This document shows, piece by piece, positions 11,338-60,212 of a stretch of DNA of 64,000 bases. Below the pieces are notes generated by a model, which was not told the DNA's origin, did no database searches, and saw only the letters and a list, made by a program, of their open reading frames with translations. How positions within the stretch are numbered: the first letter of the stretch is position 1; the number at the start of each line of letters is the position of its first letter. The stretch is from assembly GCF_056746865.1 (NCBI RefSeq), contig NZ_CM163382.1; one strand, written 5' to 3'. A program made the position numbers and the translations under genes.

Positions 11338-11361
11338 AAAGGCCCATTCGGGCCTTTTTTA
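11338..11361 (+). terminator. intrinsic terminator after sotB
   Basis: AGGCCC-ATTC-GGGCCT hairpin followed by T6; overlaps the marC stop codon. Confidence 0.6.
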
Positions 11362-12024
11362 GTGGTACGTTTTAATGATTTCCAGGATGCCGTTAATAAT
11401 AAACTGCACCCCCATACATACCAGCAGGAATCCCATCAGACGAGAGATCGCTTCAATGCCCCCCTTACCCACCAGCCGCATAATTGCGCCAGAGCTGCGT
11501 AGACTTCCCCACAAAATAACCGCCACCAGGAAAAAGATCAGCGGCGGCGCAACCATCAGTACCCAATCAGCAAAGGTTGAACTCTGACGCACTGTGGACG
11601 CCGAGCTAATAATCATCGCTATGGTTCCCGGACCGGCGGTACTTGGCATTGCCAGTGGTACAAAAGCAATATTGGCGCTGGGTTCATCTTCCAGCTCTTC
11701 CGACTTGCTTTTCGCTTCCGGTGAATCAATTGCTTTCTGTTGCGGAAAGAGCATTCGAAAACCGATAAACGCGACGATTAAGCCGCCTGCAATTCGCAGA
11801 CCGGGAATCGAAATGCCAAATGTATCCATCACCAGTTGCCCGGCGTAATACGCCACCATCATGATGGCAAAGACGTACACCGAGGCCATCAACGACTGAC
11901 GATTACGTTCGGCACTGTTCATGTTGCCTGCCAGGCCAAGAAATAACGCGACAGTTGTTAATGGGTTAGCTAACGGTAGTAACACCACCAGCCCCAGGCC
12001 AATTGCTTTAAATAAATCTAACAT
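11359..12024 (-). CDS. marC: MarC-family inner membrane protein
   Basis: 221-aa hydrophobic ORF, divergent from marRAB. Confidence 0.92.
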
Positions 12025-12136
12025 TGGTGGTTGTTATCCTGTGTATCTGGGTTATCAGCGAAAAGTATAAGGGGTAAACAACGATAAAGTGTCACTCTTT
12101 AGCTAGCCTTGCATCGCACTGACCAAAACTTGAACC

Positions 12137-12235
12137 GATTTAGCAAAACGTGGCATCGGTCAATTCATTCATTTGACTTATACTTGCCTGGGCAATATTA
12201 TCCCCTGCAACTAATTACTTGCCAGGGCAACTAAT
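12137..12235 (+). promoter_or_regulatory. marO: marRAB promoter-operator (marO): marbox, -35/-10 and two MarR palindromic sites
   Basis: Marbox-like GATTTAGCAAAACGTGGCATC (12137-12157); TTGACT (12173-12178) and TATTAT (12196-12201) with 17-bp spacing; palindromes TTGCCTGGGCAA (12184-12195, overlapping the -10) and TTGCCAGGGCAA (12219-12230, next to the marR GTG start). Confidence 0.8.
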
Positions 12236-12670
12236 GTGAAAAGTACCAGCGATCTGTTCAATGAAATTATTCCATTGGGTCGCTTAATCCATATGGTTAA
12301 TCAGAAGAAAGATCGCCTGCTTAACGAGTATCTGTCTCCGCTGGATATTACCGCGGCACAGTTTAAGGTGCTCTGCTCTATCCGCTGCGCGGCGTGTATT
12401 ACTCCGGTTGAACTGAAAAAAGTGTTATCGGTCGACCTGGGGGCGCTGACCCGTATGCTGGATCGCCTGGTCTGTAAAGGCTGGGTGGAAAGGTTGCCGA
12501 ACCCGAATGACAAGCGCGGCGTACTGGTAAAACTTACCACCAGCGGCGCGGCAATATGTGAACAATGCCATCAATTAGTTGGCCAGGACCTGCACCAAGA
12601 ATTAACAAAAAACCTGACGGCGGACGAAGTGGCAACACTTGAGCATTTGCTTAAGAAAGTCCTGCCGTAA
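12236..12670 (+). CDS. marR: multiple antibiotic resistance repressor (MarR family)
   Basis: 144-aa ORF with a GTG start; winged-helix region; operon context. Confidence 0.95.
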
Positions 12671-12689: not shown

Positions 12690-13073
12690 ATGTCCAGACG
12701 CAATACTGACGCTATTACCATTCATAGCATTTTGGACTGGATCGAGGACAACCTGGAATCGCCACTGTCACTGGAGAAAGTGTCAGAGCGTTCGGGTTAC
12801 TCTAAATGGCACCTGCAACGGATGTTTAAAAAAGAAACCGGTCATTCATTAGGCCAATACATCCGCAGCCGTAAGATGACGGAAATCGCGCAAAAGCTGA
12901 AGGAAAGTAACGAGCCGATACTCTATCTGGCAGAACGATATGGCTTCGAGTCGCAACAAACTCTGACCCGAACCTTCAAAAATTACTTTGATGTTCCGCC
13001 GCATAAATACCGGATGACCAATATGCAGGGCGAATCGCGCTTTTTACATCCATTAAATCATTACAACAGCTAG
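12690..13073 (+). CDS. marA: AraC/XylS-family transcriptional activator MarA
   Basis: Start set at [13 protein letters not shown] (127 aa); the ORF track extends it upstream; dual HTH. Confidence 0.93.
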
Positions 13074-13104: not shown

Positions 13105-13323
13105 ATGAAACCACTTTTATCCGCAATTGCAGCTGCGCTTATTCTCTTTTCCGCGCAGGGCGTTGCGGAACAAACCACGCAGCAGGTTGTTACTTCCTGT
13201 GCCAATGTCGTGGTTGTTCCCCCATCGCATGAACAACCACCGTTTGATTTAAATCACATGGGTACTGGCAGTGATAAGTCGGATGCGCTCGGCGTGCCCT
13301 ATTATAATCAACACGCTATGTAG
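13105..13323 (+). CDS. marB: periplasmic protein MarB
   Basis: 72-aa ORF with an N-terminal signal peptide, immediately after marA. Confidence 0.9.
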   Translation: MKPLLSAIAAALILFSAQGVAEQTTQQVVTSCANVVVVPPSHEQPPFDLNHMGTGSDKSDALGVPYYNQHAM

Positions 13324-15635: not shown

Positions 15636-15764
15636 TTTAAGTCGAACACAATAAAAATTTAATTCAGCCTTCGTTTAGGTTACCTCTGCTAATATCTTTC
15701 TCATTGAGATGAAAATTAAGGTAAGCGAGGAAACACACCACACCATAAACGGAGGCAAATAATG

Positions 15765-15769
15765 CTGGG
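15765..15769. repeat. IS2 target-site duplication, left copy (CTGGG)
   Basis: 5-bp direct repeat flanking the element. Confidence 0.85.
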
Positions 15770-15860
15770 TAGACTGGCCCCCTGAATCTCCAGACAACCA
15801 ATATCACTTAAATAAGTGATAGTCTTAATACTAGTTTTTAGACTAGTCATTGGAGAGCAG

Positions 15861-16226
15861 ATGATTGATGTCTTAGGACCGGAGAAACGCAGACGGCGTA
15901 CTACACAGGAAAAGATCGCTATTGTTCAGCAGAGTTTTGAACCGGGAATGACGGTCTCCCTTGTTGCCCGGCAACACGGTGTGGCAGCCAGCCAGTTATT
16001 TCTCTGGCGCAAGCAATACCAGGAGGGAAGTCTTACTGCTGTGGCCGCAGGAGAGCAGGTCGTTCCTGCCTCTGAACTTGCTGCTGCCATGAAGCAGATT
16101 AAAGAACTCCAGCGCCTGCTCGGCAAAAAAACGATGGAAAATGAACTCCTTAAAGAAGCCGTTGAATACGGGCGTGCAAAAAAGTGGATAGCGCACGCGC
16201 CCTTATTGCCCGGGGATGGGGAGTAA
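15861..16226 (+). CDS. insC: IS2 transposase OrfA (InsC)
   Basis: Translation [56 protein letters not shown]... with HTH; 121 aa from the internal ATG. Confidence 0.93.
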
Positions 16227-17089
16227 GCTTAGTCAGCCGTTGTCTCCGGGTGTCGCGTGCGCAGTTGCACGTCATTCTCAGACGAACCGATGACTGGAAA
16301 GATGGTCGCCGCAGCCGTCACTCAGATGATACGGATGTGCTTCTCCGTATACACCATGTTATCGGAGAGCTGCCCACGTATGGTTATCGTCGGGTATGGG
16401 CGCTGCTTCGCAGACAGGCCGAACTTGATGGTATGCCTGCGATCAATGCCAAACGTGTTTACCGGATCATGCGCCAGAATGCGCTGTTGCTTGAGCGAAA
16501 AACCGCTGTACCGCCATCGAAACGGGCACATACTGGCAAAGTGGCCGTGAAAGAAAGCAATCAACGATGGTGCTCTGACGGGTTCGAGTTCCGCTGTGAT
16601 AACGGAGAAAAACTGCGAGTCACGTTCGCGCTGGACTGCTGTGACCGTGAGGCACTGCACTGGGCAGTCACTACGGGCGGCTTCGACAGTGAAACAGTAC
16701 AGGACGTAATGCTGGGAGCGGTGGAACGCCGCTTCGGCAACGAGCTTCCGGCGTCTCCAGTAGAGTGGCTGACGGATAATGGTTCATGCTACCGGGCTAA
16801 TGAAACACGGCAGTTTGCCCGGATGTTGGGGCTTGAACCGAAGAACACGGCGGTGCGGAGTCCGGAGAGTAACGGCATAGCAGAGAGCTTCGTGAAAACG
16901 ATAAAGCGTGACTACATCAGTATCATGCCTAAACCAGACGGGTTAACGGCAGCAAAGAACCTTGCAGAGGCGTTCGAGCATTATAACGAATGGCATCCGC
17001 ATAGTGCACTGGGTTATCGCTCGCCACGGGAATATCTACGGCAGCGGGCCAGTAATGGGTTAAGTGATAACAGGTGTCTGGAAATATAG
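16184..17089 (+). CDS. insD: IS2 transposase OrfB (InsD), DDE catalytic domain; probably expressed as an OrfAB fusion by -1 frameshift
   Basis: 301-aa ORF in the -1 frame relative to insC, overlapping its 3' end; integrase-like core. Confidence 0.93.
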
Positions 17090-17100
17090 GGGCAAATCCA

Positions 17101-17105
17101 CTGGG
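17101..17105. repeat. IS2 target-site duplication, right copy (CTGGG)
   Basis: Identical to 15765-15769. Confidence 0.85.
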
Positions 17106-17220
17106 TAATATGAATGTTTTTATGGCCGTACTGGGAATAATTTTATTTTCTGGTTTTCTGGCCGCGTATTTCAGCCACAAATGGGATGACTAATGAACGG
17201 AGATAATCCCTCACCTAACC

Positions 17221-24982: not shown

Positions 24983-26350
24983 TTACAGACTTCTTGAAGG
25001 TTGCGCAGCTGTTACAACACGCGGTTGATCTTCCGCGGCATCTTCCAGTGCACTTAAATCACGGTCTCTCACTTCTGGCATTTTCAGCGCAGAGATTAAA
25101 CCAATCACTGAATATGCCATGATCATAATGGCGATCGGATACCAGGATTCCGTCATGGTGCAGAAAATACCCGCCAGGATAGGACCAAAACCGGAAGCGA
25201 TAAGACCACCAATTTCTTTAGAAATCGCCATCCGGGTAAAGCGGTTTTTACAGCCGAACATTTCTGCCATGGTAATGTTTTCCAGAGCAAATAATCCCAG
25301 CACCGCACAGTTATGAATCACAATCAGTGCAACCATAATGGTGCTCGGGGCATAGCTTTTATCTACGATGATAGAAAGCATTGGCCACGCCAGCACAATC
25401 GCAGAGGTATTCATAATAATATACGGGATCCGGCGACCTATTTTATCGGATAACCAACCAAGGAACGGAATGGTCATAAAGCCGAGAATCGAACTGATCA
25501 TCAATGCATCTGTTGGAATTGCTTTGTTAAACAATAACGTCTGCACTAAATAGCCTGCAAGGAAAGTCTGAATTAAACCGGAGTTACCAGCCTGACCAAA
25601 ACGCAGCCCTGTTGCCAGCCAGAAGGATTTGCTCTGGAACATGCTACCAGCAGGTGCAGGTTTTGCTGTCGGTTGGTTGCTGTCGTTAACCTTCTCAAAG
25701 ACCGGGCTTTCTTTCAGATTCATACGCAACCAGATAGCAAAGACCATCACGACAACGCTCGCCAGGAACGGTATACGCCATCCCCACGCAAGCAGTTCCT
25801 CTTTACTGAGAATGAAGAACATAAAGGCCCAGATTGCCGTTGCGCTCAAGGTTCCGCAGTTAGTCCCCATAGCAACAAATGAGGAGATAATTCCGCGCTT
25901 ACCTTTTGGTGCATATTCCGCCAGCATCGTGCCGGCACCGGAAATTTCCGCGCCTGCCCCCAGCCCCTGAATAATACGCAGCGTCACCAGCAAAATTGGC
26001 GCAAACACACCAATTTGTGCATAGGTCGGCAGCACACCAATTAAGGTAGTACAGATCCCCATCATAGTGATGGTAATAAAGAGCACTTTTTTACGCCCGA
26101 TTCTGTCGCCCATTTTGCCGAAAATAAATGCTCCGACAATACGCGCCACATAACCTGCACCGTAGGTTCCCATTGCCAGAATTAACGCCATTGCCGTTGA
26201 TGATTCAGGAAAAAATATTTCATGAAACACTAACGCTGCGCCGAGCGAATATAACTGGAAATCCATAAATTCAAGCGCAGTGCCCAGCCATCCCGATACT
26301 GCTGCTTTCACCAAATCCTTAGTGCTTCTTTCGTGTTTTTCTATTGTCAT
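24983..26350 (-). CDS. ydfJ: MFS metabolite:H+ symporter, full-length
   Basis: 455-aa uninterrupted ORF with multiple TM segments, immediately upstream of rspB. Confidence 0.88.
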   Translation of the reverse strand: MTIEKHERSTKDLVKAAVSGWLGTALEFMDFQLYSLGAALVFHEIFFPESSTAMALILAMGTYGAGYVARIVGAFIFGKMGDRIGRKKVLFITITMMGICTTLIGVLPTYAQIGVFAPILLVTLRIIQGLGAGAEISGAGTMLAEYAPKGKRGIISSFVAMGTNCGTLSATAIWAFMFFILSKEELLAWGWRIPFLASVVVMVFAIWLRMNLKESPVFEKVNDSNQPTAKPAPAGSMFQSKSFWLATGLRFGQAGNSGLIQTFLAGYLVQTLLFNKAIPTDALMISSILGFMTIPFLGWLSDKIGRRIPYIIMNTSAIVLAWPMLSIIVDKSYAPSTIMVALIVIHNCAVLGLFALENITMAEMFGCKNRFTRMAISKEIGGLIASGFGPILAGIFCTMTESWYPIAIMIMAYSVIGLISALKMPEVRDRDLSALEDAAEDQPRVVTAAQPSRSL

Positions 26351-57736: not shown

Positions 57737-60099
<2,363 letters not shown>

Positions 60100-60212
60100 G
60101 GCCTGATCCTCACCTGATTAATTTTTTCTTTCTGTTTTGCTTTCGTTAAGCAACTTTTAGCTCACTCATTATTTACTATTTGATAACAAATGTTTGGTCT
60201 TTCGTGCCATGT

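Follow-up and report, generated by a model that had tools for sequence, protein, structure and literature searches.

An intact, K-12-like marRAB control region with a common MarR allele in Escherichia coli

Introduction

Is the marRAB operon of this chromosome held off until it is induced, or does its control region carry a lesion of the kind that leaves mar constitutively on? The question arises in a stretch of 64,000 nucleotides of contig NZ_CM163382.1 (RefSeq assembly GCF_056746865.1), hereafter the window, because an earlier note had read a marbox and two intact MarR palindromes ahead of marR, and had taken mar-type multidrug resistance through an operator mutation to be not indicated.

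In the mar system, dimers of MarR occupy a pair of near-identical sites, of which site I blocks RNA polymerase, and the operon is kept off. MarR is released by inducers (salicylate, copper(II)) or by loss-of-function mutations in marR or marO; the marbox, which lies upstream of the -35 element, is then bound by MarA, SoxS or Rob, and transcription rises with the assistance of Fis. MarA in turn raises the expression of acrAB-tolC and micF, leading to low-level multidrug resistance. This mechanism was reportedly described by Cohen in 1993 and by Martin and Rosner in 1995 and 1997. It is restated in part by PMC3832178 and PMC7355843. A 20-bp tandem duplication of GCAACTAATTACTTGCCAGG in marO is a mar-derepressing lesion (PMC3832178), and this duplication and the MarR point mutants M74T, A70T, L33R and G15S are described in PMC3832178 and PMC11753663.

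Architecture of the control region

The stretch that is read here as marO, and that the preferred explanation spans, runs from 12025 to 12235. The interval 12137-12235, which ends 1 base short of the marR GTG, contains the marbox, the -35 and -10 elements and both MarR operator repeats (Table 1), and all of the strings quoted in the earlier note were found where it had placed them, including the marbox string GATTTAGCAAAACGTGGCATC at 12137-12157. The arrangement is that of marO: a pair of TTGCC-NG-GGCAA sites, one between -35 and -10 and the other just upstream of the marR start; a backward-oriented marbox upstream of -35; marC divergent upstream, and marR-marA-marB downstream. The same placement of the MarR sites, one between -35 and -10 and a second near the initiation codon, is given by PMC3832178.

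Each MarR site is the core of one copy of a 15-nt direct repeat, TACTTGCC(T/A)GGGCAA; the two copies are identical at 14 of 15 positions and have a spacing of 35 bp. Exact occurrences of TTGCCNGGGCAA number two in the whole window, namely MarR sites I and II only, as against an expectation of 0.07 by shuffling, where two occurrences were reached in 1 of 100 shuffles. The sites had been described as two near-identical palindromes; near-identical they are, but the palindromy is imperfect, each consisting of 5-bp arms (TTGCC/GGCAA) around a 2-bp centre. Similarly, site I does lie at the promoter, but instead of overlapping the -10, as had been thought, it fills the spacer and abuts TATTAT, while site II sits next to the GTG at 12236 just as had been claimed.

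On its minus strand the marbox shows 1 mismatch to the published consensus AYNGCACNNWNNRYYAAAYN. Because about 1.3 such matches are expected by chance per window, the consensus match was rejected as evidence in itself, and the status of the element instead follows from its identity to the characterised K-12 marbox. The four mar proteins, MarR, MarA, MarB and MarC, exceed their NCBIfam equivalog cutoffs (Table 1) and fall in the expected Pfam families, MarR being placed in the MarR family by NF008565 over residues 1-144 and by PF01047 with an E-value of 1.8e-18.

Table 1. Coordinates of the mar locus and of other features discussed in the text
Feature	Position	Strand	Remarks
marC	11359-12024	-	NAAT-family membrane protein, divergent; protein identical to K-12; NF008228, 376.6 bits (cutoff 162)
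Fis-consensus match	12121-12135	+	GACCAAAACTTGAAC; just upstream of the marbox
marbox	12137-12156	-	20 bp, identical to K-12; MarA/SoxS/Rob binding site, operon autoactivation
marRAB sigma-70 promoter	12173-12201	+	promoter scan 10/12, identical to K-12; 17-bp spacer
-35 element	12173-12178	+	TTGACT
MarR operator site I	12184-12195	+	TTGCCTGGGCAA; between -35 and -10
-10 element	12196-12201	+	TATTAT
MarR operator site II	12219-12230	+	TTGCCAGGGCAA; ends 5 nt upstream of the marR GTG
marR	12236-12670	+	repressor, 144 aa, GTG start; NF008565, 320.1 bits (cutoff 240)
marA	12690-13073	+	AraC-family activator, 127 aa, identical to K-12; NF008564, 294 bits (cutoff 202)
marB	13105-13323	+	72 aa; NF007508, 140.5 bits (cutoff 87)
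mgtS (yneM), interrupted	15762-17196		31 codons; ATG at 15762
IS2	15770-17100		complete, 1331 bp; same orientation as mgtS
IS2 TnpB ORF	16184-17089		
IS2 target duplication	15765-15769 and 17101-17105		5 bp, CTGGG
ydfJ	24983-26350		455 aa, full length
fumC	58696-60099	-	
Perfect marbox-consensus match	60192-60210	-	ATGGCACGAAAGACCAAAC; fumA-fumC intergenic region, upstream of fumC

Comparison with K-12 and other E. coli genomes

Between marC and marB (1965 bp) the alignment to MG1655 is gapless, with 39 single-base differences (98.0% identity), and no difference from K-12 falls between 12124 and 12420 in that alignment. The 99 bases of 12137-12235 are those of K-12 MG1655, with no insertion, deletion, duplication or substitution in the elements, and the description of an operator free of insertions and lesions is thereby borne out. 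The K-12 marO-marRAB (b1530-b1532, NC_000913.3 1618909-1620207) shows no length differences from the window, and the two share the gene order ydeA, marC (divergent), marO, marR, marA, marB, eamA, ydeE. Whereas the 99-bp control region, MarA and MarC are identical between them, MarR differs by two substitutions, G103S and Y137H only, and MarB by four (S5L, P27Q, Q42H and H44Q). The three intergenic substitutions (12082 G>C, 12119 T>C and 12123 A>C) all lie upstream of the marbox.

Of 5418 E. coli records, 3804 contain the 99-bp interval without a mismatch (about 70% of complete-genome records), and 5,403 of the 5,426 complete genomes have a match to at least 80% of the 1306 bp that run from marO to marB. 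These 1306 bp are 100% identical to the marRAB allele of enteroaggregative E. coli 042 (NC_017626.1 1750719-1752024) and to that of at least 29 further genomes among those listed, of human, animal and water origin. Natural variants in the sampled strains fall between the control elements, for example at 12161 in EM18-18-42 and at 12170 in IAI1.

Over the span compared with 042 (1-26273), the window differs from 042 at 0-1 positions per kb in 11-18 kb and again in 22-26 kb, as against 1-5% divergence across the first 10 kb, which suggests a mosaic relatedness to 042 with a recombination boundary near ydeA/marC. Unlike 042, the window has an IS2 in mgtS and is without the prophage that cuts ydfJ in 042; its ydfJ ORF is full length, as in NRZ14408. 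The marB-eamA junction is K-12-like, without the PTS/6-phospho-beta-glucosidase island of IAI1 and NRZ14408.

Predicted regulation of the operon

The locus is the textbook marO-marRAB, already known. From cis elements identical to those of K-12 and a common MarR allele, normal repression and inducibility are predicted, and we regard it as almost certain that this is a wild-type E. coli marO with intact marR, marA and marB, repressed and inducible and not constitutively on. MarR binding and repression, as well as activation by MarA, are inferred from the identity of the locus to the characterised K-12 region. MarR would occupy sites I and II, holding marRAB off until induced, and MarA, SoxS or Rob at the marbox, together with Fis, would drive marRAB and, via MarA, raise AcrAB-TolC efflux. 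This wild-type prediction covers the sequence of the window; the genes soxR, rob, lon and acrR, changes in which could derepress mar in trans, lie outside it, as do ramA-like loci.

Substitutions in MarR and upstream of the marbox

The residue-level comparison with K-12 that had been recommended finds the marO elements unchanged, but it also returns G103S and Y137H in MarR, and these might be read as a partial loss of repressor function that derepresses marRAB and adds to multidrug resistance. They are real non-synonymous changes relative to K-12, they are listed among resistance-associated mutations in many genome reports, and one such report offers the speculation that upregulation of acrA and acrB "may be related" to them (PMC8976530). 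Nevertheless, we consider this reading extremely unlikely. Exact 57-mers centred on codon 103 and on codon 137 and carrying the S103 and H137 alleles are found in 3009 of 5414 and 4192 of 5416 complete-genome records, respectively, counts that are lower bounds and amount to at least 56% for S103 and at least 77% for H137; thus S103 and H137 each prevail in E. coli, and it is K-12 that has the less common residues. If most of the species were fixed for an allele that derepresses mar, the resulting state would simply be its normal set-point. Both residues are present in commensal and reference strains, and the window MarR (WP_000843419.1, an accession also annotated in 042) is identical to the protein of IAI1 (B1), O157:H7, 13P484A and EM18-18-42. 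It is the solved MarR structures (3VOE, 5H3R and others) that have the K-12 residues, 3VOE matching the window protein at 142 of 144 positions. The primary test of the neutrality of the G103S/Y137H alleles is said to be that of Oethinger in 1998. G103S/Y137H is the commonest MarR pattern among Norwegian isolates (PMC7082582), and it was not associated with any level of levofloxacin resistance in PMC4317672, where an isolate carrying both substitutions had a levofloxacin MIC of 0.016 ug/mL, the same value as MG1655. A passage of PMC11753663 likewise states that the pair is without effect on repressor activity. The earlier note had held that any operator or marR substitution relative to K-12 would overturn its reading; taken literally, G103S, Y137H and the three substitutions upstream of the marbox are such differences, but that standard is too strict because K-12 itself has the minority allele at codons 103 and 137.

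The three upstream substitutions raise a related question about activation. The match GACCAAAACTTGAAC is the only one to GNNYRNNWNNYRNNC in the intergenic region, in the window and in K-12 alike, and we take its position (Table 1) to be that of the Fis site at marO. The +1 presumably lies near 12208, a placement that follows from a marbox centre which we take to be at -61.5, and this puts 12119 and 12123 at about -89 and -85. Fis binding to marO upstream of the marbox, with an effect of about two-fold, is mentioned in a passage of PMC7355843 that cites Martin and Rosner 1997, and just 365 records (about 7% of the complete E. coli genomes) contain the exact 57-mer that spans both positions (12093-12149); for this 57-mer the exact count alone is usable, with 1,222 genomes giving no match, and K-12-type alleles are uncountable because, with two mismatches 4 bp from each other, megablast has no 28-base exact word to start from. 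It could accordingly be argued that the changes at 12119 and 12123 alter Fis-assisted activation and leave the mar response to MarA, SoxS or Rob weaker or stronger, but this is very improbable. Position 12123 corresponds to an N in the Fis consensus, so that the full match is kept, 12119 falls 2 nt beyond the 15-bp core, and the reported effect of Fis is itself small. Moreover, K-12 is the exception at 12123, because C is found there in five of the six other strains that align (1428, IAI1, ST131, O157:H7 and EM18-18-42). Strain 1428 also has C at 12119 and at 12082. On this sequence comparison the differences at 12082, 12119 and 12123 are lineage polymorphisms, not new mutations. There is a very slim chance that, in this lineage, C at all three positions slightly adjusts the activation assisted by Fis or the divergent transcription of marC; were that so, the upstream C/C/C combination would be a naturally occurring variant with a quantitative effect on mar inducibility.

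Derepressing lesions and variant mar loci in other strains

The reading of the locus as a wild-type, inducible marO-marRAB can be set against lesions documented elsewhere. The tandem duplication, the MarR substitutions M74T, A70T, L33R and G15S and a deletion of the MarR wing affect this locus and the elements described here for the window, and sequence comparison found none of the documented mar-derepressing lesions in the marO or MarR of the window. Nor does the locus look like that of a constitutive mar mutant, its operator being unchanged and its MarR changes being the majority residues S103 and H137. With every operator element identical to K-12, the view that operator-mutation mar resistance is not indicated stands. 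For resistance prediction the value of the result is that of a plain negative with respect to mar, and any efflux-type multidrug resistance shown by the strain would need another source. The comparison also exposes a pitfall, in that G103S and Y137H are often scored as "mutations" since K-12 is the reference; they should not count as resistance mutations.

Real changes at the mar locus do occur in several related genomes. In ST131 strain 4224 (NZ_CP103592.1, a blood isolate; L006, 1747-2148), MarR is 133 aa long, with an in-frame deletion of residues 86-96 in the wing of the winged helix, a candidate loss-of-function lesion that contrasts with the intact MarR of the window. Neither this deletion nor the substitutions K62R (NRZ14408) and A53E (strain 1428) are present in the window MarR. 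In EM18-18-42 (NZ_CP063473.1, chicken meat; L004, 817-1411), genes for a RelE/ParE toxin and an HTH antitoxin lie between marC and marR, and the alignment with marO breaks off upstream of about -95; the marbox, the promoter and both MarR sites are kept. In 13P484A (NZ_CP019280.1; L003, upstream of marR at 1643), marC and marR are separated by 210 rather than 211 bp; a 1-bp deletion, close to what corresponds to window position 12163 and so between the marbox and -35, would change the marbox-promoter spacing by one base.

Other features of the window

The most notable feature near the mar locus, and one unrelated to mar, is a complete IS2 with terminal inverted repeats, inserted about 3.5 kb downstream in codon 3 of mgtS and flanked by a target duplication (Table 1). 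The upstream remnant of mgtS reads MLGRLAP-stop, and the remainder (NMNVFMAV...) resumes at 17106. The insertion probably inactivates MgtS, which is a Mg2+-responsive regulator of MgtA and PitA. A 71-bp query across the IS2-mgtS junction matched none of 5,426 complete E. coli genomes, and the insertion thus looks strain-specific.

At the far side of the window, ATGGCACGAAAGACCAAAC fits the 20-bp marbox consensus perfectly, as no other site in the whole stretch does, and it lies upstream of fumC (Table 1). Since fumC is a member of the mar/sox/rob regulon, a MarA target promoter shares the window with marRAB.
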